From: Laetmonice hystrix
Lineage: Eukaryota
DNA: 64,000 nt
Assembly (NCBI GenBank): GCA_965235115.1
Contig: OZ249436.1
Coordinates: 1,614,001-1,678,000, forward strand
Reading direction: 5' to 3'
The notes beneath the pieces were generated by a model. That model was not told where the DNA came from. It made no database searches and saw nothing but the letters and a program-made list of their open reading frames with translations. Of this stretch, positions 277 to 56,774 are shown in pieces. A program made the position numbers and the translations under genes. Position 1 is the first letter of the stretch, and every line of letters starts with the position of its first letter.

Positions 277-1580
277 TCAAGGGATTCGTCGGCTGGGTCG
301 TTCTTCTCCATCTCCACCGAAACGTCGGCTGGGTCGCTGTTCTCCATCTCCTCCGAAACGTCGGCTGGGTCGTTCTTCTCCATCTCCACCGAAACGTCGG
401 CTGGGTCGCTGTTCTCCATCTCCACCGAAACGTCCACGGCGAGGTCGCTCCTGTCCATCACCACGTCGGCAAGGACCCCTGGCAGGCAGGATCTCTTTGA
501 GGTCACACCCCTGGTTGTCATCCTCTTCATCATCCAGGATAGAATCCTCATCATCTTCCTCATCCTCGCCCTCATCCTCGCCCTCATCTTCCTCATCTTG
601 CTCGTCACCGAATGGGTCAATAGACTCCTCGTCCTCCTCCGAGGATGATCCAAACAATGGGTTCTCGGGAACACAGATGGACAGCTCGATGTCAGACCTC
701 GAACGTCGCAGCTGTACACAGCTCAGGTCTCCTGGGCAGGCTTTCTCTACAAGTGTTTCTCCAGTCGTTCTGTTCACCTTCTTGCATACCTGAGGAGGAA
801 AGAGATGACGATTAAAATGAATGCATGTACTTGGCATAGTAAGGATAATGACGTGTTGACTAAAAGGCTAGAATATTCCGACTTTCTGGCAACTGCATGG
901 GAATAGGCTTAAATCCGTGGATTGGGTTAATCCTGAGACTAATTCTGTTCTTGCATACGGCTAAAATAACATTTCCTGAAAAATAATGCGGGGGGGGGGG
1001 GCAGAATCCCTAAAAATGTGCCCTGCTTCCCGAACCCCTGATCCGCCACTGATATCGGTAAGTTCGCTTTCAGTGTTATCTCATTGTTATAGTCAGTTGA
1101 TAAAATTAGCGCCATGGGGCACTAGCTTTGTTTTATAATGTCTCATGAGCAACAATGAATTAAGCGTCTAACGAAGCTCGAAATACGCCCTACCTGTGGC
1201 TTGCAGACGTGGATTTCTAGATCTCCAAAGGGACCCTTCTTGTTGATTGGAGAGCAGGTCAGGTTCCGTGGACAGGTTGTTTCACATAGCACAACGTCTG
1301 AGGTAATGTTCTTCACAAGGCACCCCATGGGTCGGTGATGATGGCGGTGACCGGGCCGAGGGAACCTGTGCCGGTCAGACTCCCCGGCGTCCTGCTCATC
1401 ACCCCGGCTAGGCCGGCCACCCTGTGAGGGCGATCCCTGGCGGCCTCCCAGCCGGCCTCCCGCCGGCGGTGGCCCCGGCCGCCTCCCCGGCCTCCCTCCC
1501 CGGGGTCGGCCCGAGACGTCGTGGATGGCCAGTATCACCAGCACCGCCGCTATCAAACAAACTACCAACGTCGCCTTCAT
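277..1580 (-). CDS. Gene A1: secreted Arg/Gly-rich, Cys-module, acidic, RRFGGDGEERPS-repeat protein (299 aa; coding exons 1580-1194 and 789-277)
   Basis: Acceptor TTCCAG|AAG ATG at 1584/1583; signal peptide MKATLVVCLIAAVLVILAIHDVSG; donor CCACAG|GTAGGG at 1194/1193; acceptor TTCCTCCTCAG|GTA at 790/789, phase 0; 4 repeat units; two RGD motifs. Structure is conserved in four copies. Confidence 0.85.
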
Positions 1581-1989
1581 CTTCTGGAATACAAACAGTG
1601 GCAGATAGTACATTTGTAATAATATTATCTGACGTACGGTGTCCCCATACAAACAGTGGTACATGAGTTATACGGTGTGACCCATTAACCCATACAAACA
1701 GTGGCACATAGTACATTTGTAATAATATTATCTGACTTACAGTGTCCCCATACAAACAGTGGTAGGCCTACATAATCTGAGTTACGACGTGGCCCATTAA
1801 CCCATACAAACAGTGGCACATCTCAGTTACGGTATCCTCTGGCCTTGGTTCGTTTAGACGTGAACTAAAAGTTAAGGCCTTTAGGCCTACATGTCAGGGG
1901 GAAAGACGGTCAACGTATCACTGAAGCCTATAGAATGTAACTAATGTTAAGTAAATGAAATAATAAATGAAAAGCTCTATTTAACTTAC

Positions 1990-2179
1990 CGAAAGTGTTC
2001 CTCAGCTGGCCTGAAGCAAGTTATGATCGATACTGTGGCAGTAGCAGAGTTGTACTTGCTGACGTCTATTCGTGCTGAGCTCAGTTCTCGTTCACTTGGA
2101 CTGTTTGATGTCAACTGATGGTGGTGTGGCCGTTATATTCCCTGAGAGTCTAGAAATCGTGATCACCTCCGTGACGTCA
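1990..2179 (-). promoter_or_regulatory. A1 non-coding exon 1 and core promoter
   Basis: Donor CG|GTAAGT at 1990/1989; TATA-like GAATATAA at ~2133-2140 (TATATAA in A2-A4); CRE palindrome TGACGTCA at 2172-2179. Confidence 0.6.
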
Positions 2180-2266
2180 CTGCCTGCGAGGGGTTTGTTT
2201 GAGGCCACAGATCTGCTGACGGCATGACACACGCGTGGAGGGGCAGTCGACCGTGACGTCTGGAGT

Positions 2267-2797
2267 ATCATTTAAAACGGGAATTAGGTTCCGATCAAGA
2301 AGATTCCTCAATTTCAAATCTGCAGCTATAGACTCTATCCGTAATATCCATCTGTCAATCTCGATCTATCTGAAATGGGTGAATGAGTCTGGGGTTTCGA
2401 TGTTTCATTAACTCCCCCCCCCCCTTTAAAGAGCCACTTTAACTCGTGTGCAAACTGAGACAAAATGTGACACGTGCGACAGCCGCCTGTTGCCGCCAAC
2501 AACGGCAATTCTGCTAGGGCCTATAATATGATAGTTTAGCTAGTGATGCGTACCAAACCTTGAAAAACCCATGTTTTTTTAAACAATCCATCACAAGCAT
2601 ACGTTTTGACATGTGGTCGGATAGCGGGAAAGAGACTCACTCTATGAGCACGTGGAAATGAATGGGCAATAAAGAATAAATAACGTTTTGAACTTGCAAC
2701 TTATTTGTTCTGTATACCTCTTCTGCATTGTCGAGTCATTCATTATCGGGCCAGACCCATTTGCAAATGGGTCAGATTCACAGATGGCGCGTAACAT
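2267..2797. mobile_element. ~530-bp insertion upstream of A1 (also upstream of A3 at ~20030-20560), unclassified non-autonomous element
   Basis: Absent at the equivalent A2 site (GACGTCTGCAGTATGTGTACACC, ~13581-13603). Contains a perfect 20-bp palindrome GACCCATTTGCAAATGGGTC (2754-2773) near one end. Confidence 0.5.
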
Positions 2798-54744: not shown

Positions 54745-55705
54745 TATATAAAGACGGTGTGATTCCTGTTAGATAACACACGGCGGACTGCAAGGTTTGG
54801 ATTTGGACGTCACTGATTCCTGATAACACACGGCGGACTGCAAGGTTTGGATTTGGACGTCACTGATTCCTGATAACACACGGCGGACTGCAAGGTTTGG
54901 ATTTGGACGTCACTGATTCCTGATAACACACGGCGGACTGCAAGGTTTGGATTTGGACGTCACTGATTCCTGTTAGATAACACACGGCGGACTGCAAGGT
55001 TTGGATTTAAACGTCACTGATTCCTGTTAGATAACACACGGCGGACTGCAAGGTTTGGATTTGGACGTCACTGATTCCTGATAACACACGGCGGACTGCA
55101 AGGTTTGAATTGGACGTCACTGATTCCTGTTAGATAACACACGGCGGACTGCAAGGTTTGGATTTGGACGCCACTGATTCCTGTTAGATAACACACGGCG
55201 GACTGCAAGGTTTGGATTTGGACGTCACTGATTCCTGATAACACACGGCGGACTGCAAGGTTTGGATTTGGACGTCACTGATTCCTGATAACACACGGCG
55301 GACTGCAAGGTTTGAATTGGACGTCACTGATTCCTGTTAGATAACACACGGCGGACTGCAAGGTTTGGATTTGGACGTCACTGATTCCTGATAACACACG
55401 GCGGACTGCAAGGTTTGGATTTGGACGTCACTGATTCCTGTTAGATAACACACGGCGGACTGCAAGGTTTGGATTTAGACGTCACTGATTCCTGTTAGAT
55501 AACACACGGCGGACTGCAAGGTTTGGATTTAAACGTCACTGATTCCTGTTAGATAATACACGGCGGACTGCAAGGTTTGGATTTAAACGTCACTGATTCC
55601 TGTTAGATAACACACGGCGGACTGCAAGGTTTGGATTTGGACGCCACTGATATCGAAGACCATCAACCACTTTGATTTTCTAAATAATCATCGAACGAGA
55701 CAGCG
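54745..55705 (+). promoter_or_regulatory. Gene F TATA box and repeat-expanded non-coding exon 1
   Basis: TATATAAA at 54745-54752; 50/54-bp repeat x~17 (54760-55650); donor GCG|GTATGT at 55705/55706. Confidence 0.55.
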
Positions 55706-56000
55706 GTATGTACATTTACTCCAAAATCCAACACAAATATTCCTGTAACATTTCTGAATGGTATAACGTACACATAAAGTTTTTTTCAGTAAGTTTTCTG
55801 GGTAGCAAAAACGAAAAGGTGTTGGAAACGTATTCGTTGGACCGCCCCACATGTTTGGACCCTTTCTTTACCTAGCTATAAAGAGGGAGCCTATTTATGT
55901 GAATTCAAAAGTGTATCTTCCTCTCAAGAGAGGGTTTTGCAACCCCACCCCGCCCCCTTATGAACCCACTCTGGCCAATTATTGTAAGGAACATCGCTAA

Positions 56001-56190
56001 ATGTATTGTATGTATTGTATTGTATGTATTGTATGTATTGTATTGTATGTATTGTATGTATGTATTGTATGTATTGTATTGTATGTATTGTATTGTATGT
56101 ATTGTATGTATTGTATTGTATGTATTGTATGTATGTATTGTATGTATTGTATTGTATGTATTGTATTGTATGTATTGTATGTATTGTATT
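56001..56190. repeat. (TGTAT/TGTA)n microsatellite abutting the F splice acceptor
   Basis: Direct reading. Confidence 0.95.
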
Positions 56191-56204
56191 GCAATGTATT
56201 CCAG

Positions 56205-56774
56205 ATGATGAAGACGACGTTGGTGATTTGTTTGGTAGTGGCCGTGCTGGTGTCGCTGGTCGTGGACGACGTCTCCAGCCAACGACGGAGGAGACGAGGC
56301 CCCACGCCGACACGTGGTCCCGAGCAGACACGTGGTCCCGAGCAGACACGTGATCCCGAGCAGATACGTGGTCCCGAGCAGACACGTGGTCCCGAGCAGA
56401 CACGTGGTCCCGAGCAGACACGTGGTCCCGAGCAGACACGTGGTCCCGAGCAGACACGTGATCCCGAGCAGACACGTGGTCCCGAGCAGACACGTGGTCC
56501 CGAGCAGACACGTGGTCCCGAGCAGACACGTGGTCCCGAGCAGACACGTGATCCCGAGCAGACACGTGATCCCGAGCAGACACTTGATCCCGAGCCGACA
56601 CGTGGTCCCGAGCAGACACGTGATCCCGAGCAGACACGTGGTCCCGAGCAGACACGTGGTCCCGAGCAGACACGTGGTCCCGAGCAGACACGTGGTCCCG
56701 AGCAGACACTTGATCCCGAGCAGACACGTGGTCCCGAGCAGACGCGTGGTCCCGAGCAGACACGTGGTCCCTAG
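56205..56774 (+). CDS. Gene F: secreted family member with ~25 TRGPEQ repeats and no Cys module (189 aa; possibly prematurely terminated)
   Basis: TTCCAG|ATG ATG; signal peptide MKTTLVICLVVAVLVSLVVDDVSS followed by QRRRRR; 18-bp coding repeat; TAG replaces the GAG of a repeat unit. Confidence 0.7.
   Translation: MMKTTLVICLVVAVLVSLVVDDVSSQRRRRRGPTPTRGPEQTRGPEQTRDPEQIRGPEQTRGPEQTRGPEQTRGPEQTRGPEQTRDPEQTRGPEQTRGPEQTRGPEQTRGPEQTRDPEQTRDPEQTLDPEPTRGPEQTRDPEQTRGPEQTRGPEQTRGPEQTRGPEQTLDPEQTRGPEQTRGPEQTRGP

Follow-up and report, generated by a model that had tools for sequence, protein, structure and literature searches.

The 64-kb stretch of the Laetmonice hystrix genome analysed here (the window) carries eight members of a lineage-restricted multigene family that comprises 13 genes and has been amplified in tandem. 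It is very probable that these are real protein-coding genes with secreted products, their splicing being predicted. Lineage-specific clusters of secreted Cys-rich genes are common in invertebrate genomes, and a lineage-specific tandem expansion of secreted Cys-module proteins is in that sense of a familiar kind; the family itself is apparently unnamed. The window corresponds to C1:1,614,001–1,678,000 of assembly GCA_965235115.1 (627 Mb, 35 contigs); its G+C content ranges from 38 to 52% in 2-kb windows, and it is rich in mini- and microsatellites.

A six-frame search of the window with the signal-peptide motif M[KR]...[DN]VS[GS] returned exactly eight sites, with ATGs at 1580, 13013, 19445 and 26689 on the − strand (genes A1 to A4) and at 37197 (C), 41870 (D), 52161 (E) and 56208 (F) on the + strand. 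The assembly was then scanned with a 33-nucleotide (nt) IUPAC pattern spanning the acceptor and the start of the signal peptide, the reversed pattern serving as control. Thirteen sites were found (12 exact, one with a single mismatch) and none with the control; all lie within C1:1,579,910–1,670,234, a region of ∼92 kb, and they comprise nine A copies on the − strand together with C, D, E and F on the + strand. Five of the A copies are situated to the left of the window, which holds 8 of the 13 genes. The first-pass annotation, made from the sequence of the window, had described an eight-gene cluster, which is correct for the window and falls short of the total. The A block and the C–F block stand head-to-head around a spacer at 27.3–36.2 kb of the window. 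No signal cassette that would mark a further family gene was present near the GTGACGTCAC at 45444 or in the 45-bp × 72 array at 46223–49439.

All eight genes in the window follow one plan. A TATA-like motif lies 302–1008 nt 5′ of the signal-motif ATG, a GT donor follows 108–149 nt after the motif (predicted as GTAAGT in A, GTATGT in C, D and E, and GTAAGG in F), and the predicted acceptor falls 3 nt before the ATG (CAG/NNN ATG) in every case. The signal peptide has 24 residues, with a hydrophobic core (mean Kyte–Doolittle 3.0–3.6), V at −3 and G or S at −1, cleavage being predicted after VSG or VSS; in all eight genes the mature part opens with an Arg-rich stretch. These observations bear out the earlier description of an acceptor exactly 3 nt before the ATG (eight of eight), of a signal peptide of the form M[KR]...[DN]VS[GS] (eight sites, with the hydrophobic core and V at −3) and of an Arg-rich N-terminus (eight of eight), while the TATA box and first exon ending in a GTA[AT]GT donor that it had also proposed were recovered as a TATA-like motif in all eight genes and as that donor in seven, F being the exception. 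Between gene types, the stretch coding for the signal peptide is the sole alignable DNA, with identities of 84% for A–C (z 7.1), 79% for A–F, 71% for both C–D and C–F, and 59% for A–D; exon 1, the intron ends, the promoter and the first 72 nt of mature coding sequence show hardly more similarity than shuffled sequence. Because only signal-peptide DNA can be aligned between gene types, the cassette is a common architecture plus a signal peptide and not a common stretch of DNA.

The gene models are supported by open frames, low pN/pS (ratio of non-synonymous to synonymous differences per site), conservation of exon 1 and ortholog similarity that ends at the predicted donor. In all nine A copies exons 2 and 3 are open under one splice model, and eight of the nine end in RRIP-stop; despite these open frames the copies vary, with introns of 287–418 and 401–441 nt and 1–15 repeat units. 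Among the nine copies, pS (0.056 and 0.047) agrees with the intron p-distance (0.058 and 0.061), pN is 0.013 and 0.017, and pN/pS is 0.23 and 0.35, values that indicate probable purifying selection on the A copies. The predicted exon 1 differs at 82 of 4284 sites (0.019) without indels and the TATA region at 8 of 1080 (0.007), a conservation three- to eight-fold better than that of intron 1 (625 of 10656 sites, 0.059); the corresponding value for the −150 promoter is 0.127. P0001, an unnamed read-through open reading frame (ORF) from another assembly that covers exon 2 only, matched the profile with an E-value of 1.1e-23 and is 49% identical over all of A exon 2, the similarity stopping at ...HVCKPQ, which is the predicted donor. 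Similarly, P0003 is 77% identical to a dispersed paralog on contig C11 (see below), ending at the predicted ...TPR/ donor. The 49% identity of the A-type ortholog compares with 77% for that of the dispersed paralog, the two orthologs possibly coming from different species. No RNA run was identified in a search of sequencing runs with A4; three runs of unspecified kind (518–600 million letters) share 0.46–0.54 of words with A4, for which low-coverage DNA is a sufficient explanation given the 627-Mb genome. The proposal of a spliced, secreted family is thus supported by sequence evidence, namely open frames, signal features and ortholog ends, with junctions that remain predicted.

The proteins other than F are built around a module of ∼42 residues, roughly C-x(15-17)-C-[P]-x(3-5)-C-x(14-18)-C. 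Alignment of exon 2 from A1–A4, C, D and E gave 17 invariant columns, including four mature Cys and the N and T of an N-x-T sequon; across 15 aligned modules the four Cys are invariant and N-x-S/T occurs at the aligned position in 10. A and C have two modules each, of which the second opens exon 3; D and E have a single complete module plus two additional Cys in exon 3; F has none. In A and C the whole order is shared: signal, Arg-rich stretch, module 1, module 2, SSSEE, acidic block, short Cys loop and basic tail. Contrary to the first-pass annotation, A, C, D and E therefore do not differ radically in their mature parts; they are ordinary diverged paralogs with a common Cys module and a common phase-0 intron just ahead of the first Cys of a module, F alone having unrelated cargo. 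The related picture of a fixed cassette with interchangeable cargo is overstated for A, C, D and E and apt for F, in which the body has been replaced by a TRGPEQ minisatellite; a weaker form of it survives for D versus E only, where flanks and signal are 94–100% identical and the mature coding sequence 82–83%, plus indels.

AlphaFold2 predicted four beta-strands for module 1 of A1 taken alone, with a mean predicted local distance difference test score (pLDDT) of 86.2. In a prediction of the whole exon 2, residues 2–23 formed a helix, pLDDT was 44–53 for residues ∼25–85 and 73–85 for the module, and the Arg-rich stretch after the signal peptide was not folded. Elsewhere in the assembly, C11 has a pair of genes with four modules each (at 28.26 Mb and 6.98 Mb), C13 has two module-bearing copies side by side, and C5 and C20 gave weaker matches. 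These dispersed genes have other signal peptides and, as in the cluster, a phase-0 intron one residue before the first Cys of the module (...PK/VC, ...LR/VC); in the C11 gene at 28.26 Mb the acceptor immediately precedes the ATG. The module predates the cluster, being present in as many as four copies in these genes on other chromosomes.

The A genes occupy the left part of the window, all on the − strand. In A1 (277..2138) the TATA-like motif is at 2130–2138, the predicted non-coding exon 1 at ∼2108–1990 (donor G/GTAAGT), intron 1 at 1989–1584, exon 2 at 1583–1194 (ATG 1580), intron 2 at 1193–790, exon 3 at 789–280 and the stop at 279–277, giving 299 amino acids (aa). Its module 1 (1194..1325, 44 aa) has an NIT sequon and its module 2 (664..789, 42 aa) an NRT sequon, the latter followed by SSSEE and an acidic block with a net charge of approximately −30. 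A2 (11604..13580; 322 aa) has exon 2 at 13016–12627 (ATG 13013), exon 3 at 12185–11607 and its stop at 11606–11604, with promoter and exon 1 upstream, up to ∼13580; A3 (17856..20022; 388 aa) has exon 2 at 19448–19068 (ATG 19445), exon 3 at 18644–17859 and its stop at 17858–17856; and A4 (25329..27251; 319 aa) has exon 2 at 26692–26303 (ATG 26689), exon 3 at 25901–25332 and its stop at 25331–25329, with a palindromic GTGACGTCAC upstream at 27242–27251. The predicted junction runs from ...HVCKPQ/GTAGG at the end of exon 2 to CAG/GTATGC at the start of exon 3 (VCKK...), with the stop after ...RRIP, and a conserved ATTAAA lies 215–220 nt past the A stop codons. A 36-bp coding minisatellite, translated as RFGGDGE[EQ]RPSR units, is found at 287..434 (−) in A1 and at 11614–11833, 17881–18292 and 25354–25549 in A2, A3 and A4, with 4.1, 6.1, 11.4 and 5.4 copies, respectively (TRF); RFGGDGExRPSR units number 1–15 across the nine A copies. 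The mature A proteins are 275–364 aa long with 11 Cys (10 in A3) and an isoelectric point (pI) of 5.0–5.6, the charge running from ∼+7 to +8 in the first 25 residues, through ∼−30 in the acidic block, to near neutrality in the repeat tail. In A3, a Trp (18642–18640) replaces the first Cys of module 2 and 9 nt are deleted in a His-rich stretch; in L004, an A copy to the left of the window, Gly replaces the second loop Cys.

The other four genes of the window, C to F, are on the + strand. C (36189..38937; 212 aa) has a TATA-like motif at 36189, a predicted exon 1 at ∼36219–36305 (GTATGT), intron 1 at 36306–37193, exon 2 at 37194–37451 (ATG 37197; module 1 37329–37451), exon 3 at 38554–38934 and a stop at 38935–38937; exon 2 is predicted to end at ...RCTLQ/GTGAG and exon 3 to begin with VCRVE.... 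Exon 3 consists of module 2 (38554–38676), a poly-Glu block and an Arg-rich C-x12-C loop with a C-terminal Gly; the protein has a pI of 4.6 and 46 Glu, and its C-terminal loop a charge of +7. D (41568..43632; 124 aa) has a TATA-like motif at 41568, a predicted exon 1 at ∼41598–41709 (GTATGT), exon 2 at 41867–42112 (ATG 41870; six-Cys module 41984–42112), intron 2 at 42113–43500, exon 3 at 43501–43629 and a stop at 43630–43632. E (51858..53209; 115 aa) is laid out in the same way, with a TATA-like motif at 51858, predicted exon 1 at ∼51888–51998, exon 2 at 52158–52385 (ATG 52161; module 52254–52382), intron 2 at 52386–53086, exon 3 at 53087–53206 and a stop at 53207–53209. In both, exon 2 closes after the module (...CTK/ and ...CTRSR/) and a short exon 3 of the form KEAV.C... 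follows; mature D has a pI of ∼10.6 and a net charge of ∼+12, mature E a pI of ∼9.4 and a net charge of ∼+9, and the ends are Arg/Trp-rich. The C-terminus is a Gly preceded by RR or RRR in C and E, and Gly-Gly preceded by RR in D.

F (55876..56774; 188 aa) has a TATA-like motif at 55876, a predicted exon 1 at ∼55906–55983 (GTAAGG), a (TGTATGTAT)n repeat in intron 1, and a single coding exon at 56205–56771 (ATG 56208; stop 56772–56774). Its body is an 18-bp TRGPEQ minisatellite (56309–56797, ∼27 units) inside which the stop falls, and its mature part is without Cys. Neither AATAAA nor ATTAAA occurs within 1.5 kb downstream of F, and no module relics were found downstream. In composition, all eight proteins lack Tyr and are rich in Arg (14–19%), with few or no Lys (at most eight residues) and 0–7% Ser. 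The first 25 residues of A and C carry +7 to +9 and their acidic blocks −30 to −36, and these proteins have 6–19 dibasic sites.

The cluster has diversified by tandem duplication, by growth of coding and intronic minisatellites, and by mosaic evolution, the last of which is best seen in the pair D and E. The two are identical over the signal peptide (72 of 72 nt) and close in exon 1 (95.7%), intron 1 (94.9%), the end of intron 2 (94.6%) and the 3′ flank (94.4%); mature exon 2 is 83.3% identical, plus 27 nt of indels, and exon 3 82.1%. Mature coding sequence thus differs at 45 of 261 sites, as compared with 20 of 407 in flanking non-coding sequence (Fisher p 3e-7). For the mature part, synonymous divergence (dS) is 0.34, non-synonymous divergence (dN) 0.23 and dN/dS 0.69. 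This pattern shows a mosaic history, in which either the flanks were converted or homogenized or the mature part changed at an accelerated rate; dS and dN are both raised in the mature part, and positive selection is unproven.

Intron 2 of both genes consists almost wholly of a 35-bp minisatellite, at 42111..43463 (+) in D and at 52371..53049 (+) in E, beginning at the last bases of exon 2. The arrays contain 39 and 18 copies, respectively, of the donor-like GGTAAGAGATAWGTTC, against none expected by chance, and are boundary duplications of the ‘mirage’ type. As in the amphioxus ‘mirage’ minisatellites, so far as the description in PMC3087553 extends, the repeat spans the exon–intron boundary and carries splice signals, the unit in D and E beginning with the donor; here it is confined to these two genes and is a by-product of repeat instability, not a defining feature of the family.

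Searches against known families returned no described relative. None of 13 exon translations, one of which is the unrelated 107-aa ORF discussed below, reached a Pfam-A gathering cut-off. The best relevant hit was Lustrin_cystein (PF14625), with 13.6 bits for C exon 3 (E 0.089) and 11.1 bits for L016 (E 0.51); as the cut-off is 27 bits and only the CPxGxxC part is covered, assignment to the Lustrin A cysteine-rich repeat was rejected. The hirudin family, which has a core of six Cys, was likewise rejected, with no PF00713 match at E ≤ 1 and four invariant Cys in the module, although an acidic tail is present in A and C. An hmmsearch of PDB sequences with the module profile gave one match that is not significant (E 0.43, the oryzain beta chain), presumably to its granulin-like domain. 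Foldseek gave no match to the module at E ≤ 0.001, and VIA-align none at Z ≥ 5 among 48,161 chains. The best fold resemblance was to an Argos/three-finger-like domain (3c9a_A; Z 3.9, root mean square deviation 2.2 Å, 42 of 44 residues; rank 3 in Foldseek, TM 0.54), a weak match whose score is within the chance range by the tool's guide, with 14% identity and another disulfide pattern. Among 1.84 billion protein representatives, the exon 2 profile found P0001 as the sole true relative, a second match, P0002, being a spurious repeat protein, and the module profile found P0003 only; A exon 3 had no relative among 8000 candidates, a weak negative, as acidic low complexity probably filled the candidate list. 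In the ESM Atlas the best match of the C11 paralog exon was a hirudin cluster at 0.78, which is chance level by the tool's guide, and A exon 2 had no usable match. With no Pfam cut-off reached, no significant PDB sequence or fold match and a sole relative that is unnamed, the earlier view of an apparently uncharacterized family is upheld. The status ‘undescribed’ is provisional, because the searched collections appear to hold few annotated animal proteomes; in the literature no fitting annelid family of tandem Cys-rich, Arg-rich proteins was found, which is thin support for its not being in print.

The family resembles several described systems in part. Penaeidins, arasin and hyastatin are chimeric antimicrobial peptides of crustaceans, of 4–7 kDa, cationic overall and encoded by multigene families. 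They have a signal, an unstructured Pro/Arg/Gly-rich part and a disulfide-bonded C-terminal part, a layout comparable to the present one, but A and C are of 19–40 kDa and acidic, with two modules, an acidic block and repeats, and the 13 exon translations had no Pfam match to any antimicrobial family. Conotoxins and the preprodermaseptins of frog skin combine a conserved signal with a divergent mature peptide. Likewise, signal DNA alone is conserved between the gene types here, D/E mature coding sequence diverges three to four times more than introns and untranslated regions (UTRs), and in C an acidic block precedes a cationic C-terminal peptide; the differences are that dN/dS is not above 1, that most of the cargo is homologous, and that there is only one recent pair (D/E).

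In locus style and composition the nearest described analogue is the Sp185/333 (SpTransformer) family of the sea urchin, as portrayed in PMC3342357. There, too, small genes are tightly linked in both orientations and share a conserved leader; the proteins combine patches that are Gly/Arg-rich, His-rich, acidic or contain RGD with tandem repeats and sites for N-glycosylation; and microsatellites and segmental duplications accompany a mosaicism that has been ascribed to conversion or recombination. A likewise runs from a Gly/Arg-rich part through RGD to a His-rich part, without the RGD being kept in P0001. Of the two exons of an Sp185/333 gene the first encodes only the leader, and the proteins are described in the same account as lacking Cys and a predicted fold, whereas here exon 1 is predicted to be non-coding, the signal peptide shares an exon with the start of the mature part, a predicted folded four-Cys module forms the core and A has 10–11 Cys. 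Furthermore, the (CT)n tracts of the present locus adjoin interleaved 107-aa ORF copies and not the A genes, and profile search revealed no sequence similarity. On exon plan and Cys content, membership of Sp185/333 was rejected.

We tentatively propose that the products, charge-dominated proteins that would be disulfide-bonded and probably glycosylated, are secreted, charge-driven host-defence effectors or their precursors, a reading that we hold to be plausible rather than probable. On this proposal D and E would act as cationic disulfide-stabilized peptides, while A and C would be precursors in which the acidic block neutralizes the Arg-rich parts until processing at dibasic sites frees them, the C-terminal Arg-rich loop peptide of C being one example of what might be released; the many A copies, which are under purifying selection, would serve to raise dosage. 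Host defence is favoured because of the Arg-rich cationic ends, the cationic D and E with their W/R-rich ends and the many dibasic sites; because acidic blocks precede Arg-rich C-terminal peptides and C, D and E end in Gly or Gly-Gly; and because of the conserved-signal/divergent-mature pattern and the faster divergence of the A type than of the dispersed paralog. A more ambitious version, which we regard as doubtful, is that the module represents a new extracellular domain family (four Cys, N-glycosylated, beta-rich) recruited into a 13-gene polyelectrolyte locus that makes a new class of host-defence molecules, comprising the cationic peptides D and E and, cut from the acidic C precursor, a disulfide-loop peptide rich in Arg, with a uniform signal end and mature parts that diversify in part by slippage of coding minisatellites.

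A number of points weigh against host defence. The splice junctions and exon 1 are predictions, and A (275–364 aa, pI 5.0–5.6) and C (pI 4.6) are large and acidic, unlike typical antimicrobial peptides. There is no homology to a known antimicrobial family in the Pfam, PDB and protein-representative searches, and the RGD motifs of A are not kept in P0001. The D/E comparison gives a dN/dS that is not above 1 (Fisher p 0.21) and a mature dS that far exceeds flank divergence, and the mosaic is accounted for equally well by gene conversion of the flanks and by diversifying selection. F, without a module and without a poly(A) signal within 1.5 kb, may be decaying. Finally, SSSEE, the odd number of Cys in A and the nine near-identical A copies are at least equally compatible with a gel or matrix protein.

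This last observation leads to a different use for the same charges. As the main alternative, the proteins could be polyelectrolytes of an extracellular matrix or biomaterial that are secreted in bulk, the cationic D and E alongside acidic A and C that are probably phosphorylated and glycosylated; mucus, a tube lining, a cement or a mineral-binding matrix might then be formed by complex coacervation and Ca2+ bridging, both driven by charge, and by disulfides between molecules. We consider both the general idea and this elaboration of it possible but rather unlikely. One locus does supply opposite charges, arranged block-wise (pI 5.0–5.6 for A, 4.6 for C, 10.6 for D and 9.4 for E), SSSEE after module 2, a cluster that is a casein-type phosphorylation motif, is conserved in A and C, and the 11 Cys of A are an odd number. 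The nine TATA-driven A copies under purifying selection suggest a demand for dosage, and the low-complexity repeats are variable in copy number. Nevertheless, only two S-x-E sites are present per A or C protein, a mosaic divergence such as that of D and E has no obvious reason in a bulk material, and no matrix family was matched, Lustrin_cystein scoring 13.6 and 11.1 bits against a cut-off of 27. The closest comparison is with the glue of the sandcastle worm, which uses polybasic and polyacidic proteins (PMC11277488); to the extent that the cement proteins Pc1–Pc5 are described there, in both cases the secreted set includes polybasic, polyacidic and polyampholyte members for which association by charge is conceivable. 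Compared in this way, by description, the present proteins differ in having Cys modules and Arg, not Lys, as the basic residue, in their lack of Tyr, which leaves no 3,4-dihydroxyphenylalanine (DOPA) chemistry, and in a Ser content too low for poly-phosphoserine or poly-Ser. Membership of the sabellariid cements was accordingly rejected on Tyr (0 in all eight), Ser (0–7%) and Lys (≤8 residues), opposite charges being present all the same.

In A and C an acidic tail comes after a compact Cys core; this arrangement, and a tandem expansion with a conserved signal peptide, would also be compatible with venom or salivary factors, or with reproductive (gamete or seminal) factors, in which the module binds a target and the acidic tail acts like the exosite-binding tail of hirudin. 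The chance-level hirudin cluster in the ESM Atlas and the weak resemblance to the ligand-trapping domain of Argos point the same way, but none of the 13 pieces matched Pfam Hirudin at E ≤ 1, four invariant Cys in ∼42 aa contrast with the six-Cys core of hirudin, and the Atlas had nothing usable for A exon 2, so that we judge such a role improbable. Even less credit is due to prohormone or neuropeptide precursors, in which the RFGGDGExRPSR array would be cut at RR into decapeptides and the terminal Gly in C, D and E would be a signal for amidation. The RR-flanked repeats (1–15 units), the 6–19 dibasic sites of A and C, and the Gly after RR or RRR at the ends of C and E and Gly-Gly after RR at that of D are what such precursors might show; however, the units are 92–98% identical in DNA and similar non-coding minisatellites occur throughout the window, so recent slippage suffices, one A copy has a single unit, no Gly precedes the RR sites in A, and a neuropeptide gene would not usually exist as nine copies, each encoding a 300-aa glycoprotein with a pair of disulfide modules and an acidic block of 50 residues. 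Least credible of all is that these are not functional genes but chance ORFs in repetitive DNA or a decaying pseudogene array. The stop of F inside its repeat with no poly(A) signal nearby, and the loss of a module Cys in A3 and of a loop Cys in L004, could be signs of decay; against this stand nine of nine open A copies with pN/pS of 0.23–0.35, an exon 1 and TATA region that have changed less than intron 1, an ortholog from another assembly whose conservation coincides exactly with the exon, and a confident predicted fold for the module.

A sequence motif recurs in the promoter regions. GACGTCAC has 26 sites in the window as compared with 1.7 expected; it is palindromic in the A promoters (2171–2180 and 2253–2260, with equivalents upstream of A2–A4), and a 54-bp × 17 tandem repeat upstream of F (54760..55651, +) contains 12 exact copies that resemble the cyclic AMP response element (CRE). 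GACGTCAC is a possible shared element of the bZIP/CRE type. An ACGTCAC pair is situated upstream of the C TATA box (36086–36100).

The window holds further repeats. Minisatellites at 38930–39678 (34 bp × 22), 43710–44638 (32 bp × 29), 44678–45062 (43 bp × 9) and 53285–53731 (32 bp × 14) lie directly 3′ of the C, D and E stops and before the first AATAAA; the 3′UTRs, if they are that long, would be mostly repeat. Intron 1 of C contains a palindromic repeat element (36404–36960) with 82-bp direct units, an inverted arm and (CGGCGTG)14, and similar ORF fragments in its intron 2 (∼37630–38100) suggest copies of one small mobile element. A 45-bp × 71.6 array at 46223–49439 is open in three + frames, with ORFs of up to 1139 aa; since no signal cassette or start context was found in it, it is probably non-coding satellite. 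G+C-rich repeats of 47, 62 and 109 bp at 62067–62468 contain Pro/Thr/Arg-rich ORFs of ∼190–220 aa on both strands and show no gene sign. Outside the family, no Pfam match at E ≤ 0.001 was obtained for 44 further window ORFs that are 85 aa or longer.

Between the A genes an intronless ORF of ∼107 aa (MAPVDKLISEMRQMDRKF...) recurs on the − strand at 6045–6365, 7882–8202, 9710–10030, 14457–14777, 16294–16614 and 23717–24037, with broken copies near 3800–4090 and 21224–21679; several copies have a (CT)n tract of ∼230–300 bp a few hundred bases upstream. It has at least 151 matches in the assembly, including long arrays on C19 (12.55–12.64 Mb, with a period of ∼1.3 kb) and arrays on C1 and C6. It has no Pfam match, and ten unnamed relatives that are 62–78% identical were present in ENA and Logan records.

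If expression confirms the models, the locus would represent a gene set missed entirely by ORF-based or homology-based annotation, and would contribute a small disulfide domain and a taxonomically restricted secreted family, both of them new. It would further be a compact example of how tandem duplication, coding minisatellites and mosaic conservation can build a set of oppositely charged secreted proteins, and its products would be candidates for new Arg-rich antimicrobial peptides or charge-driven biomaterials.

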